A stretch of DNA of 64,000 nucleotides from Sideroxydans sp. (GCA_028710605.1 JAQTTU010000008.1:92409-156408), one strand, 5' to 3'. Counted from the first letter of the stretch, positions 1,042 through 23,493 are shown. The notes: generated by a model not told the origin, from the sequence alone. Numbers and translations are program-made.

Positions 1042-3219
1042 TCAACTTTTTGAATAACCGGGCCGCCATTTTTTGAGCAGCAGCGCGTTGCTGACGACCG
1101 ACAACGAACTCATTGCCATTGCGCCGCCCGCAATAACCGGGTTGAGCAAGCCCATCGCCGCCAGCGGAATGCCCAGCACGTTGTAGGCGAAAGCGAAGAA
1201 CAGATTCTGGCGGATTTTGGCGAGGGTGACTTGAGACAGATCAATGGCATCCGCAACGCTGGAAAGATCGTTGCGCATCAGCGTGATGTCCGCCGCTTCG
1301 ATGGCGATGTCGCTGCCGCTCTTCATGGCAAAGCTGACATCGGCGGAGGCCAGCGCGGGCGCATCGTTGATGCCGTCGCCGACCATGCCGACGATTTGTT
1401 CTGCGGCTTTGTACGAGTTGACATGGTGCGCCTTGTCTTGCGGCAACACTTCGGCGCGGTACTCGTCGATTCCGGCCTGCTGCGCGATGGCGTGCGCCGT
1501 GGCTTCGTTGTCGCCGCTCAACATCACCACGCGTATGCCCATGGCGCGCAAGCGTGCCACGGCGGCGATGCTGGTAGCCCGCAACTGGTCGGCAAATGCG
1601 ATGTAACCCAGCATGCTGTTATTGCGCGCCACTGCGATGACGCTTTTGCCTTGTTGTTGCAGAGCCAGTATTGACGGCGCTTCCGACGCGATGCCTTGTT
1701 CGGACAGAAAGGCGGGCGAACCCATCACGTAAGATTCGCCATCCAGTGTGGCGCGCAGCCCCTTGCCCGGTGTCTCGACGAAATCGCCGACGGGCAGCGG
1801 TGCAACAGAGTGTTCCCCGGCGTATTGCAGCAACGCGGCAGACAGCGGGTGAGTGGAATGTTGCCCCAGACTGGCCGCGACGCGCAGCAACTCGCCCTCA
1901 TCACTGCCCGCATTCGGGCGCAATTCGGTGACTGTCGGTTTGCCTTCGGTCAGCGTGCCGGTCTTGTCCAGTACCAGCACCGACAATTTGTGCGCGCGTT
2001 CCAGCGATGCCGCATCTTTGACCAGAATGCCGTTGCGTGCCGCCAAGCCGCTGGCGACCACGATGGTGATCGGCGTGGCCAGACCCAGCGCGCAAGGGCA
2101 GGCGATGACCAGCACCGACACGGCGTTGATGAGCGCGTAAGAAAATTCACCTTCCACTTTCAGCCAATAGAAAAAAGTCAGCGTGGCCAGCACCAACACC
2201 ACGGGTACAAACACGCCGGAGATTTTGTCCGCCAGTTTCTGGATGGCGGCTTTCGAGCCTTGCGCCTGTTCGACCATACGGATCACCGCCGCCAACTGGG
2301 TGCGGCTGCCCACCGCGATGGCGCGGCACTTGATGACACCATGCTGATTCATGGTGGCGGCATACACCTTGTCGTTTGTTTCTTTTATTTGCGGCATGCT
2401 TTCGCCGGTCAGCATGCTTTCGTCCAGCGTGGATGAACCTTCCAGCACCACGCCGTCCACCGGCACGCTTTCGCCGGGACGCACCACGAAAATATCGTCC
2501 GGGCGAAACTGCCCGACCGGCACGTCGATCACCGCGCCGTCGCGCTCCACATGGGCGATCTTCGGTTGCAGATTGAACAGCGCTTCCAGTGCAGACGTAG
2601 CCTTGTTCTTGGCATTCGCTTCCAGCAGTTTGCCGAGCAACACCAGCGTGATCAGCGTCGCGCCCGCTTCAAAATATACCGGCTGATGCAGGCCGAGCAG
2701 CACGATGGCGCAACTCAGGAAATAGGCGGCACTGGTTCCCAGCGCCACCAGCAAATCCATGTTGCCGCTGCCGTGCTTGATGCTGCCCCAAGCGCCGCGA
2801 TAGAAGCGCGCCCCCGCCCAGAACTGCACCGGCGTGGCCAGCAGCCATTGCAGCCAGGTGGGCAGCGGCAGGTGGATGTCGAGCATCATCAATGCCATCT
2901 TCAGCAGCAGCGGCGAGATGAGCGCCAGCGAAACATAAAACACCATTTTTTCTTTGTGGAACTGCCGGGCTCTATCCAGTTTCTCCGCCGCGAAATCGCG
3001 CGCCAGATGGGCATCGAAGCCGGTGTCCTGCACCGCCTTGATGAGTTCATCAACATTGGTCTGGGAGGAGTTGAAAGTGATGCTGGCTTTTTCGGTGGCG
3101 AGATTGACCACCGCGTTGACATTGTTTAACTGGTTCAGGGTTTTTTCGAGGCGCGAGGAGCATGAGGCGCAGCGCATACCGACGATTTGAAGTTCGCAGT
3201 GATTTTCAGCGTTTGACAT
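1042..3219 (-). CDS. copA: Copper-translocating P1B-type ATPase
   Basis: N-terminal GMRCASCSS metal-binding domain, CPC motif (ACPCALGLATP), DKTGTLT phosphorylation site, GDGINDAP hinge. Confidence 0.93.
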   Translation of the reverse strand: MSNAENHCELQIVGMRCASCSSRLEKTLNQLNNVNAVVNLATEKASITFNSSQTNVDELIKAVQDTGFDAHLARDFAAEKLDRARQFHKEKMVFYVSLALISPLLLKMALMMLDIHLPLPTWLQWLLATPVQFWAGARFYRGAWGSIKHGSGNMDLLVALGTSAAYFLSCAIVLLGLHQPVYFEAGATLITLVLLGKLLEANAKNKATSALEALFNLQPKIAHVERDGAVIDVPVGQFRPDDIFVVRPGESVPVDGVVLEGSSTLDESMLTGESMPQIKETNDKVYAATMNQHGVIKCRAIAVGSRTQLAAVIRMVEQAQGSKAAIQKLADKISGVFVPVVLVLATLTFFYWLKVEGEFSYALINAVSVLVIACPCALGLATPITIVVASGLAARNGILVKDAASLERAHKLSVLVLDKTGTLTEGKPTVTELRPNAGSDEGELLRVAASLGQHSTHPLSAALLQYAGEHSVAPLPVGDFVETPGKGLRATLDGESYVMGSPAFLSEQGIASEAPSILALQQQGKSVIAVARNNSMLGYIAFADQLRATSIAAVARLRAMGIRVVMLSGDNEATAHAIAQQAGIDEYRAEVLPQDKAHHVNSYKAAEQIVGMVGDGINDAPALASADVSFAMKSGSDIAIEAADITLMRNDLSSVADAIDLSQVTLAKIRQNLFFAFAYNVLGIPLAAMGLLNPVIAGGAMAMSSLSVVSNALLLKKWRPGYSKS

Positions 3220-3246
3220 GAATGGATGATTCGGGAAATGAACGTT

Positions 3247-3286
3247 TTAAAAGATACGCCCGATAGACAGGCTTGTCTATCGGGCG
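3247..3286 (-). terminator. Perfect 13-bp-arm palindrome between the DUF2892 gene and copA; terminator or operator
   Basis: CGCCCGATAGACA (3257-3269) GGCT TGTCTATCGGGCG (3274-3286). On the minus strand it is followed by TATCTTTT. Confidence 0.45.
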
Positions 3287-3312
3287 CGGGTAACGCGAAT
3301 GAATGCTAATGC

Positions 3313-3507
3313 TTATTTCTTTTCCGTCGAGCAAGTGTTCATGCCGAGCAAGGTATAGGCCGGGCAAAAACCGAAAATGCCGGTGAGCAAAGGCACCACG
3401 CCGATCCAACCCCACACGCCGACTGTTCCGGTCAGCGTCAAACCGATCAACGCCAGGCCAACCACGATACGCAGACCACGATCAATACCGCCTTCATTGC
3501 ATTTCAT
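3313..3507 (-). CDS. Small YgaP-like/DUF2892 inner-membrane protein
   Basis: 64 aa with two hydrophobic helices. GIDRGLRIVVGLALI..FGFCPAY is typical of DUF2892. Confidence 0.6.
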   Translation of the reverse strand: MKCNEGGIDRGLRIVVGLALIGLTLTGTVGVWGWIGVVPLLTGIFGFCPAYTLLGMNTCSTEKK

Positions 3508-3656
3508 TTCAATCTCCGATAATGAGTTTTGGGGCTTTCATGATACGGAATTTGCGGCTAGTGTCTGTGATAAAACGCACACAGGCGCATTATCGGCCTT
3601 GAGCGGAGCGGGGTTTCCTGTTTCAATCCGCGCACTGAACGTTTACGGGGAAGCGC

Positions 3657-4529
3657 ATGGGACAGGCAAGCATAGGCATCATAGGCGGCAGCGGCGTATA
3701 TGACATCGACGGGCTGGAAAACAAACGCTGGAAAAAAATCGAATCTTCTTTCGGCGAACCGTCGGACGAATTGCTGTTCGGCGAACTGGATGGCGTGAAG
3801 CTGGTCTTTTTGCCGCGCCACGGAAGAGGGCACAAAATCCCGCCGTCCGAGATCAACTTCCGCGCCAACATCGACGTGCTCAAGCGCGTCGGCGTGACCG
3901 ATGTCATTTCGGTCAGCGCGGTCGGCTCGTTGCGCGAAGATCTTCCGCCCGGCACGTTCGTCATCGTCGATCAATTCATTGACCGCACCTTCGCCCGCAA
4001 CAAATCGTTCTTCGGCAGCGGACTGGTGGCGCACGTGTCGATGGCGCATCCGGTGTGCAGCCGTCTGGGCGACCACATCGAAGCGGCGGTGAAGGAGGCG
4101 GGCATCAACGCCGTGCGCGGCGGCACGTATCTGGTGATGGAAGGCGCGCAGTTTTCCACGCTGGCCGAATCGAACGTGTATCGCAGCTGGGGCTGCGACG
4201 TGATCGGCATGACCAACATGCCCGAAGCCAAACTCGCGCGCGAAGCCGAGCTGTGTTACGCCACCGTGGCCATGGTCACCGACTTCGACTGCTGGCATCC
4301 CGACCACGCGCATGTGACCGTGGACCAGATCATCAAAGTGTTGCTGGCCAATGCCGACAAGGCCAAAACGCTGGTGAAACATGCCGTGCCGCGCTTGGGC
4401 GGCGATGTGGCCGCGCACGAATGCGGCTGCCGCAGTTCGCTGCAATACGCCCTCATCACCTCGCCCGAAGCGCGCGACGAAGAAATGAAAAAGAAACTGC
4501 AAGCGATAGCGGGGCGGATGCTTTTGTAG
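3657..4529 (+). CDS. mtnP: S-methyl-5'-thioadenosine phosphorylase
   Basis: IGIIGGSGVYD, FLPRHGRGH and GMTNMPEAKLAREAE are PNP/MTAP family signatures. Confidence 0.9.
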   Translation: MGQASIGIIGGSGVYDIDGLENKRWKKIESSFGEPSDELLFGELDGVKLVFLPRHGRGHKIPPSEINFRANIDVLKRVGVTDVISVSAVGSLREDLPPGTFVIVDQFIDRTFARNKSFFGSGLVAHVSMAHPVCSRLGDHIEAAVKEAGINAVRGGTYLVMEGAQFSTLAESNVYRSWGCDVIGMTNMPEAKLAREAELCYATVAMVTDFDCWHPDHAHVTVDQIIKVLLANADKAKTLVKHAVPRLGGDVAAHECGCRSSLQYALITSPEARDEEMKKKLQAIAGRMLL

Positions 4530-4580
4530 GAGCGAGCTTGCTCGCGAAAAGGCTTCGCGAGCAAGCTCGCTCCTACAAAA
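4522..4580. repeat. REP doublet (TGTAGG-hairpin family), inverted pair
   Basis: TTTTGTAGGAGCGAGCTTGCTCGCGAA AAGGC TTCGCGAGCAAGCTCGCTCCTACAAAA. Each arm is itself a hairpin. Confidence 0.8.
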
Positions 4581-4604
4581 CCGACTTTGAATGAAAGTTG
4601 AAGA

Positions 4605-5243
4605 ATGACTGAAAAAATTTTGCGCCAACAACTGTTCGACACCTCGCGCCGCCTGGTCGAACTCGGCCTCAATCGCGGCTCTTCCGGCAACGCCTCGGTG
4701 CGCTACGGCGACGGCATGCTTATCACCCCATCTGCCTTGCCCGTGTCCGACATGACCACAGAAAGCATGGTGCGCATGGACTTGAACGGCAACGTGCTGC
4801 AAGGCGGCAAGCCTTCCAGCGAATGGCGCTTTCACCGCGACATCTTTGCCGCGCGTCCCGAGATCGACGCGATCATTCACACCCATTCCATCTACGCCAC
4901 CACCATCGCCTGTTTGCGCAAAGACGTGCCGCCGGTGCATTACCACATCGCGATCACGGGCGGCGACACCATTCGCTGCACACCGTACTCCGTGTTCGGC
5001 GAGCAGATACTTTCCGACCATGCGTTGGAAGCGCTGCGCGAACGCAAAGCCTGTCTGCTGGGCAACCACGGCATGATCGCGCTGGGCACGGACTTGGCCG
5101 ATGCACTGGCCGTCGCGGTGGAAGTCGAATTCGTGTGCGAAATCTACTGGCGCACGCTGCAAGCTGGCGAGCCGCAGATACTGACACCGCAACAGATGCA
5201 CGAAGTGAAACAGAAGTTTGTCGAGTACAAGAAGAAAAGCTAA
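4605..5243 (+). CDS. Class II aldolase, FucA-like; candidate 5-(methylthio)ribulose-1-phosphate aldolase (Ald2-type) rather than MtnB dehydratase
   Basis: Near-collinear with my recollection of E. coli FucA: LGLNRGSSGNASVRYGDGMLITP, PSSEWRFH, HTHS, HYHIA, LGNHGMIALG. It sits between mtnP and apt/mtnA. Confidence 0.75.
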   Translation: MTEKILRQQLFDTSRRLVELGLNRGSSGNASVRYGDGMLITPSALPVSDMTTESMVRMDLNGNVLQGGKPSSEWRFHRDIFAARPEIDAIIHTHSIYATTIACLRKDVPPVHYHIAITGGDTIRCTPYSVFGEQILSDHALEALRERKACLLGNHGMIALGTDLADALAVAVEVEFVCEIYWRTLQAGEPQILTPQQMHEVKQKFVEYKKKS

Positions 5244-5255
5244 CCTCAAAACCTT

Positions 5256-13289: not shown

Positions 13290-13320
13290 CAGGCTTTTGC
13301 CTGCTTGGGGGTATAACCCC

Positions 13321-14244
13321 ATGTCCCGTACCAAACGCCCGCTGGATGGCGTGCTGCTGTTCGATAAGCCGCTGGAACTCAGCTCCAACACCGCGCTGCA
13401 AAAAGTCCGCCGTCTGTTCAGTGCCGAAAAAGCCGGACACACCGGCACGCTAGATCCGCTCGCTACCGGCCTGCTGCCGGTCTGTTTCGGCGAAGCCACC
13501 AAATTCACCATTGCCTTACTCGATGCCGACAAACGTTATCGCGCCACGATACGTCTGGGACAACGCACGACCACCGGCGATGCCGAAGGCGAAGTCACCG
13601 AGACGCGCCCGGTGGATGTAAATGAAGCGCAAGTGCTGGCAGTGCTGCAAAAATTCATGGGCGAAACCCAGCAACTGCCGCCCATGCACAGCGCCATCAA
13701 ACACCAAGGAAAACCGCTGTACGAATACATCCGCAAAGGCGAAACAGTAGAGCGCGAACTGCGCACCGTGTTCATCCACGAGTTGAAGCTGGAACGCTTG
13801 CAGGAAAACGAACTGGAATTCAGCGTGCTGTGCAGCAAGGGCACTTATGTGCGCACCTTGGCGGAAGACATCAGCGAACAACTGGGTTGCGGCGGACATC
13901 TGATCGCGCTGCGCCGCACAGGAATCGGCGAGTTCAATCTGGACGATGCATACACTCTGCCGCATCTGGAAGCCATGGACGCAACGCAGCGCGATGCCTG
14001 CCTGCTGCCGCTGGATAGACTGGTGCAAAACCTGCCGCGTCTGGAACTGAATGCGGTGCAGGCCAACCGTCTGGCGCAAGGCCAACGGCTGGGACTGACC
14101 GATGCCTTCCCCGACGGCAAACGCAGGATGTATGCGGACGGTTGCTTCATCGGTCTCGGTGAATTGTCCGCTGGCAGACTGAGTCCCAGCCGCTTGCTGT
14201 CCGGAATCGCCAAAGCGGCGGCAGTGGTTTCTTCGCCCGAGTAA
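13321..14244 (+). CDS. truB: tRNA pseudouridine-55 synthase
   Basis: GVLLFDKP.., and GHTGTLDPLATGLLPVCFGEATK contains the catalytic Asp motif. Confidence 0.92.
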   Translation: MSRTKRPLDGVLLFDKPLELSSNTALQKVRRLFSAEKAGHTGTLDPLATGLLPVCFGEATKFTIALLDADKRYRATIRLGQRTTTGDAEGEVTETRPVDVNEAQVLAVLQKFMGETQQLPPMHSAIKHQGKPLYEYIRKGETVERELRTVFIHELKLERLQENELEFSVLCSKGTYVRTLAEDISEQLGCGGHLIALRRTGIGEFNLDDAYTLPHLEAMDATQRDACLLPLDRLVQNLPRLELNAVQANRLAQGQRLGLTDAFPDGKRRMYADGCFIGLGELSAGRLSPSRLLSGIAKAAAVVSSPE

Positions 14245-14554: not shown

Positions 14555-15424
14555 ATGGCGCGACCACTCCGAATCGAACTATCCGGCGGCATCTACCACG
14601 TGACCTCGCGCGGCGACGGGCGCGAGGATATTTTTCTGGATGACCGAGATCGGGTGCAATGGCTGGAAGTGCTCGGACAAGTCTGCGAGAGGTTTAACTG
14701 GGTATGCCACGCCTGGTGCCAGATGACCAACCATTACCACCTGCTGATCGAAACCCCGGAAGCCAATCTCGCCCAAGGCATGCGCCAACTCAACGGCGTT
14801 TACACCCAACGCTTCAACCGCGACCACCAGCGCGTAGGCCACGTATTTCAAGGCCGCTACAAAGCCATCATCGTCGAACGCGACACCTACCTGATGGAAC
14901 TGGCACGCTATATCGTCCTGAACCCGCTACGCGCAAAAATGGTTAAGCGCCTCGAAGATTGGCGATGGAGCAGCTACCTCGCCACCTGCGCACAAGAACC
15001 GCAACCCAACTGGTTGCAGACCGACTGGATACTGGCGCAATTCGGAATTCGGCGTAGCAGCGCCATTGCCAAATACATCCAGTTCATCCACCAAGGCGCG
15101 CGCCTGCCCAGCGTGTGGGCGCAATTGCAAGGGCAGATATACCTCGGCTCGGAAACCTTCGTCAAAAACATGCAAGCGCAGATCGAAAAGAAAACCTCGC
15201 TGGACGAAATCCCGCGCGCGCAAAGACGCGCCATCACCCAACCGCTGGAAGAATTTGAAAAGCAATACGAACGCAACGAAGCCATGGCACAAGCCTACCT
15301 GAGCGGGCGACACACCATGGCTGCCATAGCCCAACATTTCGGCGTACATTACGCCACCGTGAGCAGAGCGGTTAACGCCAGCAAGTCAACGGAAAAACAA
15401 GGTGCGGACGATGCTAATACTTGA
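14555..15424 (+). CDS. REP-associated tyrosine transposase (RAYT; IS200/IS605-like Y1 HUH enzyme) with C-terminal DnaA-C-like HTH
   Basis: YHVTSRG, HUH motif NHYHLLIETP, catalytic-Tyr block RYIVLNPLRAKMV, WRWSSY, and C-terminal MAAIAQHFGVHYATVSRAV. Confidence 0.85.
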   Translation: MARPLRIELSGGIYHVTSRGDGREDIFLDDRDRVQWLEVLGQVCERFNWVCHAWCQMTNHYHLLIETPEANLAQGMRQLNGVYTQRFNRDHQRVGHVFQGRYKAIIVERDTYLMELARYIVLNPLRAKMVKRLEDWRWSSYLATCAQEPQPNWLQTDWILAQFGIRRSSAIAKYIQFIHQGARLPSVWAQLQGQIYLGSETFVKNMQAQIEKKTSLDEIPRAQRRAITQPLEEFEKQYERNEAMAQAYLSGRHTMAAIAQHFGVHYATVSRAVNASKSTEKQGADDANT

Positions 15425-15514: not shown

Positions 15515-17611
15515 CCCCGTTGTTCCTACTCTCGTCTATATGAGCATCAAAAAATTGATGGATCCGCCACGGTTACGGTATTGCAGAACCCCAAGCACGG
15601 GGTAATACGTTTAGTAACAGAGGCCGACAGAGGCACTTTCTTTAGCAGTAAATCTGGCCCCATTAATCCAGCTTACGAGCCTTACGCTTACCTTCCGGAG
15701 CAAGGTTATCTGGGCAACGACAGCGCCACCTTCCTGGTAGATTTTGGCGGCAAGATAGTCAAAGTAGTTTATTACTTCAAGGTGGTCGATCACCCCGTTG
15801 GGAATGATGGTGACATGGAGATATGTAAGTCCGGTCCTTACTGGAAAATCTCCTCCACCCTAGCCCCCAACGGCACCAGCACCCTCACCTCCGTCGAATA
15901 CCAGCAGCTCACCCTTGACGCTGGCAACACCACGACAGATATTTCCACGTTGGCTTCAACACTCGACTCCAGCATCCTGAGCAGCCTCTCCGTTGACCCA
16001 ACCGCTGTCACTCTGAACATCGCCGACCTCCCCAACGCCGCAGTCGGCCAAACCACCGGCTCCACCATCACCCTCGACACCACCGCCTCCGGTTACGGCT
16101 GGTTCATCGACCCCACCCCCGCCGACAACAGCGAATACCTCCCCACCTCCAACCCCTTTGAGTGGGTAGCCAAAGCGGGCAGTGAGGCTGCGGGCAAAAT
16201 GGACATGCTCACCGTCCTCCTGCACGAATACGGCCATGCCCTAGGCATCAACCACAGCGCCGACCCGAACGACTACATGGGCGCAACGTTGACGGCGGGG
16301 GTGCGCAGGTTGCCGAGTGCGGAAGAGATGGTCTTGATGCAGGGGTTGGTGGCGCAGGCTAAAGACGGTTTGGTAGGGCGGGTTACACCCGCCGATGCCG
16401 CACAACAAACGGCGGGTGTGACCCGCCCTACGACCCCCGCCCCATTCCCCACCCTCCCGCTAGGCGGCATGAGCCTGGCTTTCGTCGGCCTGCTGCGCAG
16501 CAGCCGTTATGGCGGACTGAGCATCGCGCCGGATGGCAGCACGTTGGTTACACAATACGACTGGGCGGCTAATCCCGCCTTTGCCAGCCTCGACAATGTG
16601 GGTGGTTGGTCAACGGAAGATGGCGTGGACTTTGCGCCCGCAGACCCTTCGACAAGCTCAGTGCGAACGGCCTCTGCCACCCTGAACGAAATCTCCACCA
16701 GCCAAACCCGCTTGAGCCAAGTGTTCATGCTCAACACTAGCGACCGCTACCTGAGCTTCACTCTGAGCGGCACAGCGCTGGATAACCTCACTGGCGCACC
16801 GGACGATGCCTTTGAAGTCGCTTTGCTCGATGCCAACACCGGCCTCTCGTTGCTCGGCAGCAACGGCCTAACCCGCAGCGATGCCTTCCTCAACCTGCAA
16901 GCCGACGGCACGCAGAACGCCGCTGACTGCGTGACCTGCACCAACAATGCCGATGGCAGCCGCACCTACCGCGTTGACCTCACCGGCATTTCCGCAGGAA
17001 CCGTAGCCAACCTCAGCTTCGACCTCATCGGCTTCGGGCAAAACGGTAGCCACATCACCGTGCAGGATGTGCGCGTCAGCGGCCTGCCGCAATTGCACGA
17101 CGACAGCGCCACCCTCGCCGAAGATAACCAGCTGACCTTCGACCCCTTCGCCCAAGCCGACACCCAGCTCAAACCGCTGCTTGTTTCCCACATCGTTGAT
17201 GCTCCGACGCATGGTGCTGTTACGGTGAACGCGGACGGCAGTGTCAACTCCGCATCCGCTTAAGCGGATAGCGGATTGCCTACCTTTGGTACATTCGCTT
17301 ACACCCCAGACCTCAATTACTTCGGCAGCGACAGCTTCAGCTACCGCCTCTCCGACGGCCCGCTCGATTCCAACCTCGCCACCGTCAGCCTCACCGTCAC
17401 CCCGGTGAACGACGCGCCTGTAGTCGCCGACGTTGCTGCGATTACGGCAGAAGACACGCCGCTGGTGATTGCGCTGGGAGCGTATGCAAGCGATGTGGAC
17501 TCCACCGCGCTTGTTGTAACCATCGTCAACGCACCCATCCACGGCACGCTGCAAGCCAATGCACTGAGGATGAACTTGCTGGCAGTAGTGAATGCGAATT
17601 CATCGCACTAA
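15515..17611 (+). pseudogene. Remnant of a large secreted metzincin / cadherin-like repeat protein: 5'-truncated, one in-frame TAA, 3'-truncated
   Basis: Zinc motif HEYGHALGINH. Cadherin-like repeats (DSFSYRLSDGPLDSNLATVSLTVTPVNDAPV). No signal peptide or credible start. ORFs 15581-17263 and 17276-17611 share one frame separated by a TAA at 17261-17263. The reading frame ends inside a REP. Confidence 0.65.
17584..17608 (+). repeat. REP, GTAG-hairpin family (variant)
   Basis: GTAGTGAATGCGAATTCATCGCACT has the same hairpin core as 14282-14305. Confidence 0.55.
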
Positions 17612-17615
17612 TTCG

Positions 17616-17645
17616 TTGGCATCCGCCAAATTGTTCGGTTACAAT
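17616..17645 (+). promoter_or_regulatory. Candidate promoter for tRNA-Val
   Basis: TTGGCA, 18 nt, TACAAT, ending 15 nt before the tRNA 5' end. Confidence 0.55.
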
Positions 17646-17659
17646 GCGCGTCCTTTTAC

Positions 17660-17736
17660 AGGCGCGTAGCTCAGCTGGTTAGAGCACCACCTTGACATGG
17701 TGGGGGTCGTTGGTTCGAGTCCAATCGCGCCTACCA
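17660..17736 (+). tRNA. tRNA-Val (anticodon GAC)
   Basis: Acceptor AGGCGCG/CGCGCCT, U8, D-arm AGCTCAGCTGGTTAGAGC, anticodon arm CCACC-TTGACAT-GGTGG, T-arm GTTGGTTCGAGTCCAAT, encoded CCA. Confidence 0.93.
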
Positions 17737-17775: not shown

Positions 17776-18330
17776 ATGTTCACATTGAGCCTGCATGGAG
17801 AAGAAAGCACCCAGGCTCAGCTCAAGCCTGGCTATTCCTACTGTTTGATCGTGCGTTCCGATGCTCAGCGCAAAGCGGTGTTGGATACGCTTGCCGCACT
17901 GCCGAACGTGGCGGTTGTCGCCAACAACGGCGGGCTCATCAGCAATCTGCGCGTGTGGGAAAACCTGGCCTTGCCGGTGCAATATCGCAATATTCAACTC
18001 GGCGGCAAATTCGAAGAGAACGTGGTAAATTTGCTGGAGAAGTGCGGAGTGCGCGACGAGCAGTCTTTTACCGCGCTGATGTTCAAGCTGCCCGATCAAT
18101 TGTCGTTGTATGAAAAGCGTTTGGTCGGTTTTGTGCGTGCGATGCTGATGATGCCGGAGGTGATGGTCTATGACTCTTTGCATGAAGGACTTTCGCCCAG
18201 GGAGATGGAAAAGACCGCCAGATTCGATCGCATTTTCCGTTTGTATTTTCCGTTCCGCACTTCGGTATTGTTGAGTTTCGACGAATATCGGGATCCGACC
18301 GAACCCCGACAAGTGGTTATCCAATTGTGA
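17776..18330 (+). CDS. Degenerate ABC nucleotide-binding-domain-like protein (MlaF-like fold, all catalytic motifs lost)
   Basis: 184 aa, collinear with MlaF as I recall it. Walker A GPSGIGKT is replaced by VRSDAQRKA, the Q-loop Q by N, signature LSGGM by LSLYE, Walker B-Glu FDEP by YDSL, and H-loop SHD by SFD. Confidence 0.6.
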   Translation: MFTLSLHGEESTQAQLKPGYSYCLIVRSDAQRKAVLDTLAALPNVAVVANNGGLISNLRVWENLALPVQYRNIQLGGKFEENVVNLLEKCGVRDEQSFTALMFKLPDQLSLYEKRLVGFVRAMLMMPEVMVYDSLHEGLSPREMEKTARFDRIFRLYFPFRTSVLLSFDEYRDPTEPRQVVIQL

Positions 18331-18331
18331 G

Positions 18332-19285
18332 ATGAAACTACCTAACTTCAATCTGACCATACTGAATACCGAACGCAAAACCACGCGCTTTATGTGGGTC
18401 GCGCTTCTGGTGCTGGTTGCGGTGTCGAGCATGATCGCGTTCAAGCAGGATTATTTTGTGCGCAATACCGCGATCTATTTCTTTGCGCCCAACGCGCAGG
18501 GAATCAGCAAGGGCATGGCTGTAAAATTCATCGGCTTCAAGGTGGGCAGCGTGCAGGAAATCAGCATGCAGTCCAACGCTTCGGTCAAGGTCAAGCTGTC
18601 GCTGGATAACGAGTACGTCCGCCTTATCGGGCAGGATGCCAAAGCGCGTTTGACCAAAGAGGCGCTGGTGGGCGAGGGCGTGGTCGAGATCATTCCCGGC
18701 GAGCAGCAGGTGCGGCAGGTGGTGGAGAACAGCGTGCTGGTGTTCGAGCGCGGCATAGATGCCGGAGCATTGGTGGAGCGGCTTACCGGGCAATTGCAAC
18801 CGATTCTGACCGATGTGAAACAAATCACTTCTTCGATCAATAATCCGCGCGGCGACGTGCAGCAGATTCTGAAAAATCTTACTCAAGTGACCGGCGGCTT
18901 GCGCGAGACGGTGGTGCAATTCAACGCGCTGGCGCAAAGCGGCAACCAGAAGCTGGATGGCGCATATGTGAAAGTGGATCGCGCGCTGGATCGCGTCAAT
19001 TCAAGTCTGGAAGCGGTGGACAAGGCGATTCCGAAATTGGTGGGCAAAGCGGATGCGACGATGGACAACGTGCAGTCGGTGGCTGTCGATATCAAACGCA
19101 TCACCAGCGAATCTTCCGAACAAATTCCTTCTCTGGTTCGCAATACCAACGCCCTTGTGCAGGATAGCCAGGAGACGCTGAAAGGCGTGCAGAAATCCTG
19201 GTTGCTGAACGATCTTTTCCCCAGGCCGGAAGAGACGGCGCTGCCGGTGGACGGCTATGTGACACCGCCGGTGGTCAAGCCGTGA
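18332..19285 (+). CDS. MCE-domain (MlaD-like) membrane protein with long helical C-terminal region
   Basis: N-terminal TM (FMWVALLVLVAVSSMIAF). MCE core ..GISKGMAVKFIGFKVGSVQEISM..VKVKLSLDNEY.. Confidence 0.8.
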   Translation: MKLPNFNLTILNTERKTTRFMWVALLVLVAVSSMIAFKQDYFVRNTAIYFFAPNAQGISKGMAVKFIGFKVGSVQEISMQSNASVKVKLSLDNEYVRLIGQDAKARLTKEALVGEGVVEIIPGEQQVRQVVENSVLVFERGIDAGALVERLTGQLQPILTDVKQITSSINNPRGDVQQILKNLTQVTGGLRETVVQFNALAQSGNQKLDGAYVKVDRALDRVNSSLEAVDKAIPKLVGKADATMDNVQSVAVDIKRITSESSEQIPSLVRNTNALVQDSQETLKGVQKSWLLNDLFPRPEETALPVDGYVTPPVVKP

Positions 19286-20091
19286 TGAAGGCATTTTTCC
19301 TGAGGAGCGGGCTCTTGCTGCTGGCGTTATCGCTGCTGTCCGCCTGCGGCAGCAAAGCGCCGGTCGCGCGCAGCGCGCGGCAGGAGCAGGCCATCGAATT
19401 CAACCAGCGCGCCCAGCGCGCATTTTTGCGCGGCGAATATCAGACTGCCGCCGGTTTGTACGAAAACGCGCTGCTATTGGATGCCGCCATCGAGAATGAG
19501 GAAGGCATCGCGATCAATCTGCTGAATCTGGCCAGAGTAAATCAAACGCTGGGCAAGCCTGCGCTGGCGCAACAGTATCTGGATAGGCTGCTGGGCGAAA
19601 AGGCGCTGAAATTTCCGTCAGCGCAACTGGCGGCTGCGGCCACGCAATACGGCCTGATCCGCTTGCAGGCAGGCGATGTTGTCACAGCGAAAATATGGGC
19701 GGACAAGGCGGCGGAATATTGTGCGTCAGACTGCAAATCGTCCGGGGTGATCGCCAATCTGCGCGCGAACATCGCCATCCAGTCCAACGATAAAGAGCAG
19801 GCGCTGTCGTGGAGCGAGCGTGCGGTTTCCGCCAACAAGGGCGAGTCGCAAGTGGAATATGCCAATGCCTTGCGTTTGTTGGCGCAGTCCAGATTGTTGC
19901 GGCAGGAATTTGCGTTGGCGCTGCCCTTGCTGGAAGAGGCGCTTGCAATCGACAAGACGCTGGGGCTGCCGGAAAAAATTCGCCAGGATTTGTTGTTGTC
20001 GGCGCAAGCGCAGGGCAAATTGGGGCGCGCGGAAATGGCGGTGCAATATCGCGAACGGGCGGCGCGCATCGCCGCCACTGCGGTGAAGTGA
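19285..20091 (+). CDS. TPR-repeat lipoprotein
   Basis: Lipobox LLSAC. Repeated A-x-x-Y/L-x-x-A-L TPR-like helices. The start overlaps the MCE gene stop. Confidence 0.7.
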   Translation: MKAFFLRSGLLLLALSLLSACGSKAPVARSARQEQAIEFNQRAQRAFLRGEYQTAAGLYENALLLDAAIENEEGIAINLLNLARVNQTLGKPALAQQYLDRLLGEKALKFPSAQLAAAATQYGLIRLQAGDVVTAKIWADKAAEYCASDCKSSGVIANLRANIAIQSNDKEQALSWSERAVSANKGESQVEYANALRLLAQSRLLRQEFALALPLLEEALAIDKTLGLPEKIRQDLLLSAQAQGKLGRAEMAVQYRERAARIAATAVK

Positions 20092-20092
20092 G

Positions 20093-21892
20093 ATGGAGCT
20101 GAAACTGGGCGCGCTGAAGTTGGCAAACGAAAAGGCCAGAATCGGTCTGGGTTTTGTCGTGTGTCTGCTGGTGACTGCGGGGCTGACTTTCTCCCACTTG
20201 AGCGAGAATCTGAACCGGAAAATACTGGACCGGCAATTTGTTTTTTTGCGCGATCACTACCCGCATCCGGTTGCCAACGATGTGGTGATTGTCGGTATCG
20301 ACGAAGCGACCTTCAAGACCTTCAAAGAACCCTACGAATTATGGCATCCCCACTTCGCCAAATTCTTGCAGGCCATGAGCCGTGCCAAGCCTTCTGTGGT
20401 CGGGATAGATGTGGCGTTGCCGGAACATTCCTACGATTTTTTGATACCGAAGTATGACCAGAATCTCACTCAGGGATTGCTCGCGCTGAAAGCGCAAAGC
20501 CCCATCGTGCTGGGGCAATTGCTGGACGAAAACGGCAACTTCCGTTCGGTGTATGCACCATTTATCGAGGCATCCGGCACGAATGCGCTGGCCACAGTCG
20601 TGGTTTGCTCGGAAGCGGACAAGGTGGCGCGTTTCGCCGATCCGAACCAGTGTACGGTCAATGCGCAAGGCGCGACCTTGACCGAAGCGATGGCGGTGCA
20701 ATTGGGCAGGAAGCAACCATCGCGCGGCCTGGTCGATTTCAGGGTGGGCGATGAGCTGACTTACATCCCGTTTCAAAAAGTGCTGGATTGGGCGGAAAAT
20801 GGAGATGACGAGCAAATGCGCAATGCGTTTGCAGGCAAGCCAGTGTTGCTCGGCATGATTTTGCCGTTTGAAGATCGCGTGAATTTGCCCGTGGTGCTGG
20901 CGGCGTGGGAGCCGGAAAACCGTCATGTATCCACTGTGGTGTGGCATGCACAGGCGCTACGTTCGATGCTGGAGCGCGGTTTGATTCAGGAATCCCATCA
21001 CGATCTGGTGCTGGCGTTGAGCCTGCTCGCGGCTTTGCTTTGGTTTGCCCGTTTGCACTGGTTCAAGTTTGTGTCGCTGGTGATTTTTCCGATTGTGTTG
21101 CTGGCTTATTCGACCTGGCATCTGAGTCAGGCGGCTTATTTACCGGTGGGCGGAATATTGCTCTCGGGCTTTGCTGCATTCGGTTTGCGTTCCATTTATG
21201 AATTGATATTGAAAGCGCGCGAGAACAAGGAACTGCGCGGCATCTTCGGCAGTTACGTGAGCGCCGAGACCTTGCGCGAACTGATCGCGGGCGGCGTGAA
21301 ATCGCGTCTTGAGGGCGAGCGTAAACGGGTGTGCATCCTGTTTGCCGACATCCACAATTTCGGCGCGCGCAGCGAAAGCAGTTCGCCCAAAGAAGTGGTC
21401 GCATTGCTCAACGAATACTTCACCGAAATGACGGTCGCCATCCACCAGCACAACGGCACGGCCAGCAAGTTTATCGGCGATGCCATCATGGCCTGCTTCG
21501 GCGCGCCGCAAGCATTGGAATGCCCGGAGAAAAACGCATTGGAAGCCGCACAGGCAATGCTGTTGCGCGTGCGCCAGGTCAATGCGCGTTTGAAGGAGCA
21601 GGGCATCGCTCCGATTGAGATCGGTATCGGACTGCACGTGGGCGACGTGGTGATCGGACATATTGGCTCGGAAGCGCGCCACGAATACACCGCCATTGGC
21701 GAAGTGGTGAGCATGGCGGCCAAGCTGGAAGAGCTGACCAAGACTTTGGGCTACCCGGTAGTGTGCTCCAGGGCGGTGGCGGAAAGAGTTGAACTGTCCG
21801 GCGGGTTGACCGAGCTGGGCGAGCAAACAATGAAAGGTAATGCCGTATTGTCGGTGTGTGGCTGGTATCCACCTTTGCTTGCGGCGAACTGA
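20093..21892 (+). CDS. CHASE2 sensor / class III nucleotidyl cyclase with non-canonical transition-state residues
   Basis: N-terminal TM, about 270-aa periplasmic CHASE2-like region, three TM helices, then a cyclase domain: ILFADIHNFG and KFIGDAIMACFGAP are present, but the GDxVNxAxR block reads GEVVSMAAK. Confidence 0.8.
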   Translation: MELKLGALKLANEKARIGLGFVVCLLVTAGLTFSHLSENLNRKILDRQFVFLRDHYPHPVANDVVIVGIDEATFKTFKEPYELWHPHFAKFLQAMSRAKPSVVGIDVALPEHSYDFLIPKYDQNLTQGLLALKAQSPIVLGQLLDENGNFRSVYAPFIEASGTNALATVVVCSEADKVARFADPNQCTVNAQGATLTEAMAVQLGRKQPSRGLVDFRVGDELTYIPFQKVLDWAENGDDEQMRNAFAGKPVLLGMILPFEDRVNLPVVLAAWEPENRHVSTVVWHAQALRSMLERGLIQESHHDLVLALSLLAALLWFARLHWFKFVSLVIFPIVLLAYSTWHLSQAAYLPVGGILLSGFAAFGLRSIYELILKARENKELRGIFGSYVSAETLRELIAGGVKSRLEGERKRVCILFADIHNFGARSESSSPKEVVALLNEYFTEMTVAIHQHNGTASKFIGDAIMACFGAPQALECPEKNALEAAQAMLLRVRQVNARLKEQGIAPIEIGIGLHVGDVVIGHIGSEARHEYTAIGEVVSMAAKLEELTKTLGYPVVCSRAVAERVELSGGLTELGEQTMKGNAVLSVCGWYPPLLAAN

Positions 21893-22674
21893 TGTCTGAC
21901 CTTTGGAGCAAAATCAGTCTGTGGTTGAAGCTGGGGCAGATAGTCCAGACGGCGCGCGGTTGTTTTGATTTGTGGTGGTATGCAACCAGCCATTACCGCG
22001 TATTAAAAATCGTCCCGGTCAACACCGTATTCCATCGCCAGATATTTTTCACCGGGGTCGAGGCGTGGGGCATTGTCGCGGTGTTCGGCTTTCTGTGCGG
22101 CACGCTGGTTATCACCCAGACCACCTCGCTGGTCGGCGGCGACAGCGAGCTTACCGTGAAAATTTTGATCTGGACCGTGGTGCGCGAAGTCGGCCCCTTG
22201 TTCGCCGCCATCATCATCATCGCGCGCAGCAGCGCAGCCATCGCCTCCGAGTTGGCGCTGATGAAAACGCGCAACGAAATGACCCACCTCTCGCGCATGG
22301 GCATCTCGCCGCAAGACTATCTGATCGTGCCGCGCATCTTCGGCGTAACGCTGGCGGTAATGGCGCTGACCATTTACTTCCAGGTTGTCGCCATCGGCGG
22401 CGGTCTGGCCGTGAGCGCACTGTTTCAAAACGTTTCCTATCTCGATCAAATCGGGCGCTTCCTGAGCACCGTCAAACTCAGCGAATTCGTGCTGGTCGCG
22501 TTCAAAGGCTGCCTGTTCGGCATCGCCATTTCCACCATCTCCTGCTACAACGGCATGCAAGCCAAACCCTCGGTGACCGAAGTCCCCAAAGTCGCCATCC
22601 GCGCCGTGCTGCAAAGCCTGCTGTTCGTGTTCACGCTGGATGCGTTGATCGCCTATGTCACTATGGCGGGGTGA
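21892..22674 (+). CDS. MlaE-like ABC transporter permease
   Basis: VREVGPLFAAIIIIARSSAAIASELALMKTRNEM..LSRMGISPQDYLIVPRIFG is the MlaE/YrbE signature. The start overlaps the cyclase stop (TGATG). Confidence 0.85.
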   Translation: MSDLWSKISLWLKLGQIVQTARGCFDLWWYATSHYRVLKIVPVNTVFHRQIFFTGVEAWGIVAVFGFLCGTLVITQTTSLVGGDSELTVKILIWTVVREVGPLFAAIIIIARSSAAIASELALMKTRNEMTHLSRMGISPQDYLIVPRIFGVTLAVMALTIYFQVVAIGGGLAVSALFQNVSYLDQIGRFLSTVKLSEFVLVAFKGCLFGIAISTISCYNGMQAKPSVTEVPKVAIRAVLQSLLFVFTLDALIAYVTMAG

Positions 22675-22709: not shown

Positions 22710-22795
22710 ACTTAAGAGAATCGCAGCAGGCATAGCCAATCCGCAAGCGTTGTGTTAGATTCTGTCCAGTCTGGCCAGAATTAATGGAGAACATC

Positions 22796-23074
22796 ATGCG
22801 CAGCGAACGACAGTTTCAGGAAGCAACGGGTCATTGGCAATTACAGGAAGCAAAGGGCAACTTCAGCCAACTCATCAAGCGGGCGGCGGGCGGCGATGCG
22901 CAAATGGTCACTGTACACGGCAAGCCTACGGCGGTAGTTGTTTCGGCGGAAGAGTACGCCCGGCTCACCCGCCACCGCACCAAGCTCTCCAGCGCGCTGC
23001 TGCGTCCCGACCTCGCAGCCGAAGACCTGGACATTACCCGCAGCCGCGACGCTGGGCGCGACATCGAGCTATGA
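22796..23074 (+). CDS. Type II antitoxin, Phd/YefM family
   Basis: WQLQEAKGNFSQLIKRA..VTVHGKPTAVVVSAEEYARL. It overlaps the toxin start (ATGA). Confidence 0.8.
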   Translation: MRSERQFQEATGHWQLQEAKGNFSQLIKRAAGGDAQMVTVHGKPTAVVVSAEEYARLTRHRTKLSSALLRPDLAAEDLDITRSRDAGRDIEL

Positions 23075-23493
23075 GCTGGCTGCTGGACACCTGTGCGCTT
23101 TCCGAATACGCCAAGAAAGCTCCAGCGACTAAAGTGATAGCTTGGCTGGACGAACAGGACGAGGCCAGCCTTTTTATCAGCGTCATCACGCTGGGCGAAA
23201 TCGAAAAAGGCATCCTCAAATTGCGCTCCCGCGACACGCGCCGCAGCCAGAAGCTCACCGCTTGGTTGGGCAAGGTGGAACAACGTTTCGCCGGACGCAT
23301 CCTGCCGCTCGATGCCGCCACTCTCCACGTCTGGGCGCAAATCGCCGCGCATTGCGAGCTGGCCGGGCAACCCATGCCAGTGATGGACGGCCTGCTCATG
23401 GCCACCGCCCAATGCCACGGACTCACCGTGGTCACCCGCAACGTGCAGGATTTTGCGCCGTATCCACAAATCTTTAATCCTTGGGAGCTGTGA
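23071..23493 (+). CDS. vapC: Type II toxin VapC (PIN-domain ribonuclease)
   Basis: MSWLLDTCALSE (first PIN Asp), ..ITLGEIEKG.., C-terminal VVTRNVQDF. Confidence 0.85.
   Translation: MSWLLDTCALSEYAKKAPATKVIAWLDEQDEASLFISVITLGEIEKGILKLRSRDTRRSQKLTAWLGKVEQRFAGRILPLDAATLHVWAQIAAHCELAGQPMPVMDGLLMATAQCHGLTVVTRNVQDFAPYPQIFNPWEL

Follow-up and report, generated by a model that had tools for sequence, protein, structure and literature searches.

The window considered here, a 64,000-nucleotide (nt) stretch of a Sideroxydans sp. genome (GCA_028710605.1 JAQTTU010000008.1:92409-156408), carries an operon related to the Mla/MCE systems. Its five genes encode, in order, a protein with the fold of an ATP-binding cassette (ABC) nucleotide-binding domain (NBD), an MlaD-like MCE protein, a TPR lipoprotein, a class III cyclase homolog with a CHASE2 sensor domain, and an MlaE-type permease (Table 1). 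As read from its sequence, the operon belongs to a subfamily of MCE (Mla-type) systems with a dead NBD, and it includes an MCE-linked CHASE2 cyclase in graded decay. These are two unexpected features, and the function of the operon is wholly a matter of inference. Neither P-loop-less MlaF homologs nor the gene architecture itself is described in the literature searched, from which subscription-only papers were excluded; an earlier reading of the same DNA (the original prediction) had likewise known of no description of the architecture.

The five open reading frames (ORFs) all lie on the + strand between 17776 and 22674, packed as originally predicted with junctions of +1, -1/-4, +1 and -1 nt. 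The ORF1/ORF2 and ORF3/ORF4 junctions both read TGAgATG (18328-18334 and 20089-20095, respectively) and leave 1 nt between the genes. The ORF2/ORF3 junction is GTGATGA at 19282-19288, which gives -1 nt with the ATG at 19285 or -4 nt with the GTG at 19282. The ORF4/ORF5 junction, TGATG at 21890-21894, is a -1 nt junction that favors ATG 21892 over GTG 21856, so that the former is most likely the start of MlaE. Pfam profiles matched the MlaD/MCE, TPR, CHASE2, Guanylate_cyc and MlaE assignments that had been made for ORFs 2 to 5. The predicted absence of MlaB and MlaC was also borne out, as a Pfam scan of the five operon products found no STAS (MlaB) or MlaC match.

Table 1. Features of the operon and of the tRNA gene that precedes it, in window coordinates.
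Feature	Position	Strand	Details
Promoter-like site of tRNA-Val	17616-17645	+	TTGGCA, 18-nt spacer, TACAAT, then GC-rich discriminator; 10/12 consensus matches
tRNA-Val (anticodon GAC)	17660-17736	+	ARAGORN
ORF1, pseudo-NBD, 184 aa	17776-18330	+	MlaF/MceG-type ABC nucleotide-binding fold without P-loop
ORF2, MCE protein, 317 aa	18332-19285	+	N-terminal transmembrane anchor, MCE beta-barrel, about 150 aa of C-terminal helices (needle-type extension)
ORF3, TPR lipoprotein, 268 aa from ATG 19285	19285-20091	+	TPR_12, E = 5e-11; signal peptide; lipobox LLSA/C, Gly at +2
ORF4, CHASE2 - transmembrane cluster - class III (IIIb-type) cyclase-homology protein, 599 aa	20093-21892	+	
ORF5, MlaE-type permease, 260 aa from ATG 21892	21892-22674	+	PF02405, E = 2.7e-48

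ORF1 was originally described as NBD-like, a claim that holds for its MlaF/MceG-like fold but not for its function, as the protein lacks any Pfam match and does not qualify as an ATPase. Models of ABC NBDs and ATPases give only partial, weak matches, far below their cut-offs. A search of 5.8 billion proteins returned 112 relatives, mostly of exactly 184 aa, from Gallionella, Sideroxydans, Sideroxyarcus and Ferrigenium. In the family alignment the Walker A loop is absent, and the approximately 28 aa that follow Walker A in ordinary NBDs are deleted as well. The best solved-structure match of the family profile is MlaF (7ch8, E = 1.5e-12), relative to which the signature LSGGM has become LSLYE, the Walker B DE has become DS, and the switch His has become Phe. 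An AlphaFold2 model built on an 83-sequence alignment (pLDDT 92.4, pTM 0.90) has as its top Foldseek matches MceG of the Mce1 complex (8fed_H) and MlaF (7d06_B), with a template modeling score of about 0.72 on the query; FtsE and BceA are also among its structural neighbors.

The loss of the ATP site extends across the family. When 1.84 billion cluster representatives, clustered at 50% identity, were searched exhaustively with HMMER, 64 family members were recovered with E <= 1e-30 and 541 with E <= 1e-10. Among the best 150 of these 541, the motif GxxxxGK[ST] occurs in none (0/150) and an LSGGQ-like signature in one (1/150). ORF1 thus keeps the fold of an ATP-hydrolyzing NBD while lacking the Walker A, LSGGQ signature, Walker B Asp-Glu and switch His that define one. 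On these motifs it is a pseudo-NBD derived from MlaF, not an ATPase, and the label 'MlaF ATPase' given to its homologs in JGI annotations is misleading. This pseudo-enzyme, missed in the original prediction, is arguably the more surprising feature of the operon. One stretch, GGLISNLRVWENL.LP..YH, is strongly conserved in the ORF1 family and aligns with the Q-loop/helical-subdomain region of MlaF. That region of ABC NBDs faces the permease, and for this reason ORF1 would be expected still to dock on MlaE.

A further Sideroxydans genome (L040) encodes a conventional MCE operon at 1651-5250, about 5 kb upstream of tRNA-Val, composed of a STAS-MlaE fusion, an ABC_tran protein with an intact GGSGSGKST, MlaD and an ABC_trans_aux lipoprotein. 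Because the conventional operon keeps its Walker A, lineage-wide drift is ruled out as the cause of P-loop loss. By this comparison of motifs, the loss is specific to the pseudo-NBD system.

The other core proteins are more readily recognized. The MCE protein matches MlaD (PF02470, E = 5e-15) and has a transmembrane segment at residues 20-38 by hydropathy, although it scores better against TIGR00996 (Mtu_fam_mce, E = 4e-20) than against MlaD. Helices are predicted at residues 144-169, 176-206, 214-242 and 247-289, taken as secondary structure alone from a low-confidence AlphaFold2 monomer (pLDDT 50), and there is a faint precomputed match to Helical_needle (PF28544). The TPR lipoprotein gave no ABC_trans_aux/PqiC match in the Pfam scan, and all related loci, with or without a cyclase, have an ortholog 3' of the MCE gene. 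MlaE also matches TIGR00056 (E = 4.6e-35, under its curated cut-off) and is the most conserved protein of the operon, with 74-95% identity over the main clade.

Conservation was surveyed in one genome per species (GTDB-based) by scanning with the ORF1 alignment, which gave 62 loci onto which the five window proteins were mapped. A main Gallionellaceae clade of 46 loci (L001-L046), about 40 of them complete, retains the order pseudo-NBD, MlaD, TPR, cyclase, MlaE, which recurs in three more distant genomes (L047-L049) whose ORF1 identity is 38-39%. In all, the operon recurs in four lineages deeper than the main clade. MlaD and TPR genes overlap by 1 or 4 nt in 24 of 44 loci, cyclase and MlaE genes by 1 nt in 31 of 36, and nearly all gaps within the operon are of 20 nt or less. 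The genomic slot is equally constant, as nearly all main-clade loci place the operon behind tRNA-Val and about 100 nt ahead of thrS. Chance falls far short of explaining this arrangement, and the conserved slot, order and junctions indicate that the operon is a core chromosomal feature and not an island. The original prediction had left room for a strain-specific insertion of the cyclase and TPR genes into an otherwise canonical mla operon; this is ruled out, as both genes are conserved across Gallionellaceae.

Another set of loci shows which genes form the older part of the operon. A cyclase is missing from eleven outgroup loci, which belong to other Gallionella and Burkholderiales, Nitrospirae, Geobacteraceae and a deltaproteobacterium and run MlaE, NBD, MlaD, TPR lipoprotein; their NBDs, of 215-236 aa, also lack Walker A. 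The same four genes are found on metagenomic contigs, as MlaE, NBD (again without Walker A), MlaD and TPR on L063 and L069, and as pseudo-NBD, MlaD, TPR and MlaE, without a cyclase, on L065. Since the core exists without the cyclase, the TPR lipoprotein is a defining member of an older four-gene core and the cyclase is an addition. The original view of an operon rebuilt around both the cyclase and the lipoprotein therefore does not stand, as the cyclase alone is the add-on. It is a lineage-level accessory of one branch of the core, almost always placed immediately 5' of mlaE.

The cyclase protein matches CHASE2 (PF05226, E = 1e-18) and Guanylate_cyc (PF00211, E = 3e-23). Its CHASE2 region is flanked by a transmembrane segment at about residues 15-33 and a hydrophobic cluster at about 305-365 (hydropathy), so that by its domains the protein belongs to the CHASE2-class III cyclases. 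Two cysteines of the periplasmic CHASE2 region, C172 and C187, are invariant in all in-operon orthologs, which suggests a conserved disulfide. Aligned to Spirulina CyaC (1wc0) and Cya2 (2w01), the catalytic hexad of the window protein reads DDKTSK (D419, D463, K459, T533, S540 and K544). The metal-binding residues D419 and D463 are kept together with the class IIIb Lys/Thr pair K459/T533, and the transition-state Asn and Arg are replaced by Ser540 and Lys544. Class III cyclases need this Asn and Arg for normal turnover, and the hexad expected of a competent class III adenylate cyclase is incomplete.

Across the surveyed loci the hexad ranges from canonical to degenerate. The canonical DDKTNR is found in L047 alone, and NDKTNR in L048 and L049. 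DDKTSK, the form in the window, is the commonest, and several loci have N, G, Y or H at the first Asp. More eroded forms are REKTE(Q/K) in L043 and L046, and RSKTDA, RGKTDA, RSRTDA and similar in a Sideroxydans lithotrophicus-type clade. The gene is absent altogether from four genomes (L035, L041, L044 and L045). On a neighbor-joining tree of three shared core proteins, built without support values, near-canonical hexads lie deepest, L041, L044 and L045 are nested in the RSKTDA clade, and L035 stands beside other degenerate forms. The hexad may accordingly have passed from DDKTNR through DDKTSK and RSKTDA to gene loss. A paralogous CHASE2 cyclase elsewhere in L017 keeps DDKTNR. In L002 the cyclase occupies two frames and was recovered as two tblastn pieces, a frameshifted gene of a metagenome-assembled genome (MAG), so that its 'nocyc' label on the tree is an artifact. 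An 857-aa ORF in L016 and an MlaE in two pieces in L025 are likewise MAG loci with split or fused matches, and all three are probably assembly frameshifts rather than pseudogenes.

Erosion of the active site has not been accompanied by decay of the domain. Mean column conservation is 0.76 in the cyclase domain versus 0.70 in CHASE2, and the 99 near-invariant residues of the orthologs include none of the catalytic positions. Pairwise dN/dS (nonsynonymous to synonymous substitution rates) is about 0.11 for the DDKTSK group and about 0.17 for the clade that has lost its metal ligands, rough values given a dS of 1.0-1.6. Judging by these measures, the cyclase domain is under continued purifying selection. 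An independent lineage, L073 (GCA_964410705.1), encodes a CHASE2 cyclase 51% identical to that of the window with the hexad DDKTNR, followed after 7 nt by the start of MlaE. In this genome the pseudo-NBD, MlaD and TPR genes are set apart from the cyclase by some 6 kb that contain other genes (DUF4384, OmpA and small secreted proteins). The layout of L073 differs greatly and the cyclase and mlaE still stay adjacent, which shows that their adjacency survives a different cluster layout.

Genes with possible signaling roles accompany the core in some relatives. In a Nitrospirae locus (L052, 7026-8246), a BrkB/YihY-family membrane protein is fused to a cyclic nucleotide monophosphate (cNMP)-binding domain and its gene overlaps the TPR gene; this fusion is possibly a cNMP receptor attached to a cyclase-less core. 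In L047 a REC-REC-GGDEF protein follows MlaE, and in L062 PilS/PilR-like genes lie upstream of the core and a stand-alone receiver downstream. Caspase, CHAT, DUF4384 and TPS genes flank the module in two further lineages, and no signaling neighbors of the core were found in L058 or L069. As single examples per lineage, these neighbors are suggestive and do not amount to a statistic.

The L073 operon forms part of a larger cluster (1-20555) with a ShlB/TpsB transporter, a 2411-aa TPS-caspase (Peptidase_C14) protein, DUF4384, OmpA and small secreted proteins in which curlin-like QGNT...N.A repeats were seen by eye. In another relative (P0355 contigs), TPR-CHAT and caspase-DUF4384 genes adjoin the pseudo-NBD. 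A secreted protein of 288-305 aa without a Pfam match is encoded in L047 (6258-7172) and L073 (9107-9973), with 51% identity between the two. It is found only in these two loci, which are those with a canonical-DDKTNR cyclase, and has no homolog in the window or in main-clade loci.

Upstream of the operon, ORF1 starts 39 nt 3' of tRNA-Val, and a consensus scan of the + strand found no terminator-like site between them, as the original prediction had stated. The scan returned 15 terminator-like matches in the region versus a shuffle mean of 8.8 (standard deviation 2.9), a modest excess that includes matches inside the operon, for example at 19407-19421. The spacer between tRNA-Val and the ORF1 ortholog is 36-54 nt in every locus whose sequence includes tRNA-Val. 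Upstream of the tRNA gene, a block of TTGGCx, a 17-18 nt spacer, TACAAT and GCGCG(T/G)CC is near-invariant in essentially all Gallionellaceae loci (L001-L044 compared). Because the spacer leaves no room for a separate promoter outside the tRNA gene, co-transcription with tRNA-Val is the simplest reading, and the site at 17616-17645 is probably the promoter of the tRNA and, through read-through, of the operon. GC-rich discriminators are typical of stable-RNA promoters under stringent control. If read-through occurs, the discriminator would subject an envelope operon to control by growth rate. A perfect 9-bp hairpin (CCAGGCTCA GCT CAAGCCTGG region) lies at 17811-17831, about 35 nt into the ORF1 coding sequence, where the local fold energy of the mRNA 5' end is -22.5 kcal/mol.

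The wider surroundings in the window include truB (13297-14241), an IS200-like Y1 transposase with a helix-turn-helix (14555-15421), and a large matrixin/cadherin-like surface protein in two ORFs (15581-17263 and 17276-17611), possibly as a result of frameshift or truncation, all upstream of tRNA-Val. Between mlaE and thrS, at 22784-23493, lie a Phd/YefM antitoxin (PF02604, E = 4e-15) and a PIN-domain VapC-type toxin (PF01850, E = 2e-11). As the mlaE-thrS gap is only about 100 nt in most related loci, this pair looks like a strain-specific insertion and the sole window-specific element at the site. No second Mla/MCE system was found within the 64-kb window.

Compared with the MlaFEDB systems of E. 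coli, A. baumannii and P. aeruginosa, which work with MlaC and MlaA, the operon shares the MlaE permease (PF02405), the MCE protein (PF02470) and the MlaF-type fold of the cytoplasmic subunit. It differs in that the NBD lacks Walker A, signature, catalytic Glu and switch His, in the absence of MlaB (STAS) and MlaC, and in two added proteins, the TPR lipoprotein and the CHASE2 cyclase. The permease gene comes last instead of adjoining the NBD gene, and the MCE protein has 317 aa with a long helical tail, versus 183 aa for E. coli MlaD (PMC10665443). The operon resembles Mla/MCE ABC systems in its workings and descends from them, but because it lacks their defining ATPase it should not be filed as an MlaFEDB transporter.

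Closer parallels are Brucella abortus Mpc (mpcEFDA), a chimeric Mla-Pqi system (PMC12436622), and the minimal MlaEFD of Veillonella parvula (PMC10665443), both proposed to form trans-envelope bridges. These systems also have a minimal MlaE/MlaF/MCE core without MlaB or MlaC, with an extended MCE protein proposed to bridge the periplasm. The fourth gene of Mpc provides a partner for the bridge, and the outgroup loci described here show the same E-F-D-lipoprotein order. However, the F subunits of both are MlaF homologs by the papers' descriptions whereas the NBD here is a pseudo-enzyme, neither system includes a sensor cyclase, and the lipoprotein here is of TPR type without an ABC_trans_aux match. 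Set against PqiABC, LetAB, Mce1 and Mpc-type bridges in general, the operon offers about 150 aa of predicted helix (from the pLDDT 50 monomer), the faint PF28544 match and a TPR-type lipoprotein.

For the cyclase, the nearest counterparts are the CHASE2 class III cyclases CyaD1, CyaD2 and CyaK of S. meliloti, which have the same architecture of N-terminal transmembrane segment, periplasmic CHASE2, transmembrane cluster and cytoplasmic cyclase domain. The gene here is instead embedded in, and translationally coupled to, an MCE operon; its hexad is non-canonical (DDKTSK) and more degenerate in orthologs, and the operon contains no Crp/Clr-type receptor. BceAB-BceS, FtsEX, LolCDE and MacB bear a conceptual likeness only, as ABC-type membrane complexes in which a signal or conformational change is the main output. 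They need an active ATPase and the operon has none. In BceAB-BceS the partner is a sensor-less histidine kinase, whereas here it is a cyclase with its own periplasmic domain, and the homology seen is that of the NBD fold.

These observations are best accommodated, with a probability that we put at about 0.55, by an MCE envelope complex that is not powered by its own NBD and is coupled to a CHASE2 sensor whose cyclic AMP (cAMP) output has been weakened or lost. In such a complex, MlaE2, pseudo-NBD2 and MCE6 would assemble like MlaFED, with the pseudo-NBD serving the MlaE dimer as a static clamp or docking platform on its cytoplasmic side. Its own NBD could not power the complex, and lipid movement, if any, would be passive or otherwise energized. 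The absence of an ATP site also adds weight to the original suggestion of something other than a plain lipid transporter. The MCE needle and TPR lipoprotein would extend towards, or touch, the outer membrane. The CHASE2 protein would associate with the MCE complex and couple the periplasmic or lipid-occupancy state to the cytoplasmic cyclase-homology dimer. The ancestral output would have been cAMP; that of the window lineage would be at best weak cAMP synthesis, or a catalysis-independent role, either nucleotide-binding or allosteric. In S. meliloti, CyaD1, CyaD2 and CyaK are reported to sense their signal via the outer-membrane protein NsrA (PMC13001267), which is a precedent for envelope-relayed input to a CHASE2 cyclase. 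A bolder and less probable version, which we advance tentatively, is that an ABC-derived MCE machine has been turned into a trans-envelope sensor, in which the P-loop-less NBD freezes the MlaE dimer as a scaffold, the MCE needle and TPR lipoprotein signal lipid or outer-membrane status, and a CHASE2 protein docked on MlaE transduces it to the cytoplasm.

Several points weigh against the proposed unpowered, sensor-coupled complex. The length and geometry of the MCE needle, and hence its trans-envelope reach, depend on a poor monomer model (pLDDT 50), and placement of the lipoprotein in the inner or outer membrane is not readable from sequence in the Gallionellaceae lineage. That the CHASE2 protein physically associates with the core is suggested indirectly, by adjacency and translational coupling. 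The order of hexad changes was mapped on a tree lacking support values, and near-saturated dS makes the dN/dS values rough. The cyclase, absent from four genomes and from the outgroup, may contribute little. Conversely, DDKTSK retains both metal ligands and the adenine-specifying Lys/Thr, so genuine cyclase activity would be possible.

Two different and less likely explanations may be set beside this one. If the cyclase contributes little, the four core proteins could form an ordinary lipid conduit, passive or energized in trans by the proton motive force or another ATPase, with the cyclase a decaying relic outside the complex. The core is indeed widespread without the cyclase, erosion has reached the catalytic residues, already degenerate clades have lost the gene on at least two occasions, MlaE is the most conserved protein, and PqiAB and LetAB are MCE systems that have no ABC ATPase. 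A relic is nevertheless unlikely in view of the full-length cyclase ORFs, which are kept with a dN/dS of about 0.1-0.2 even after metal-ligand loss, of the 1-nt cyclase/mlaE overlap in most loci, and of the adjacency of the two genes in the distant, differently laid-out L073; a trans-acting ATPase would in addition need to displace a strongly conserved pseudo-NBD. If, on the other hand, the cyclase is active, the MCE scaffold and TPR lipoprotein would pass an envelope or lipid signal to CHASE2, with cAMP (or cGMP) as the physiological output, as the original prediction of a signaling machine implied. The window protein keeps both metal-binding Asp and the purine-specifying Lys/Thr pair, DDKTSK is the commonest and a stable state in the family, and the hexad of deep relatives is canonical (DDKTNR). 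In the Nitrospirae relative the operon includes a fused cNMP-binding protein, and the NBD is unable to drive transport. We nonetheless think this improbable, since both transition-state residues are replaced in the window, and many orthologs without catalytic-metal ligands, with four genomes lacking the gene, indicate that cAMP synthesis is not the conserved function of the operon. The predicted signaling machine is partly supported; a cAMP or cGMP output is not to be assumed, given DDKTSK, the degenerate orthologs and the four losses.

It is very improbable that the operon joins unrelated genes or represents a tRNA-linked mobile island or Pycsar-like defense module, as might be supposed from its position beside a tRNA gene, the toxin-antitoxin pair directly downstream and the matches of the cyclase to PADLOC PycC models. 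The slot (thrS follows after about 100 nt), the gene order and the junctions are conserved, and this synteny of tRNA-Val, operon and thrS over the 46 main-clade loci (about 40 complete) rules out a tRNA-associated genomic island; the toxin-antitoxin pair alone is specific to the window. The ORFs listed for 15.5-25.5 kb include no evident integrase, and no dedicated search for att-type direct repeats was made. A Pycsar defense system is ruled out as well, as the PycC matches reflect generic cyclase-domain homology, the operon has no cNMP-binding effector, and the specificity residues are of the purine type (Lys/Thr).

The mechanism, direction and energy source of MCE lipid transport are open questions. 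The sequences point to a broad MlaE-type subfamily whose NBD does not bind ATP (at least 64 clusters at 50% identity, E <= 1e-30), which provides a test case for what an MlaE/MCE core does without ATP hydrolysis and for the structural role of the NBD fold. We know of no defined direct ligand for CHASE2, and the fixed pairing of a CHASE2 cyclase with mlaE offers a concrete, testable partner for this sensor domain. Pseudo-enzyme evolution has a clean natural case here, in a series graded from canonical through dead cyclase to loss of the gene. Should the operon encode a trans-envelope sensor, it would be the first MCE-based signal-transduction system, would provide the first physiological input for a CHASE2 domain, and would have co-opted two pseudo-enzymes, NBD and cyclase, in one complex. 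Gallionellaceae are iron oxidizers that must manage both their envelope and extracellular mineral, and for their physiology a conserved envelope system that is transcribed by read-through from a tRNA promoter may matter.

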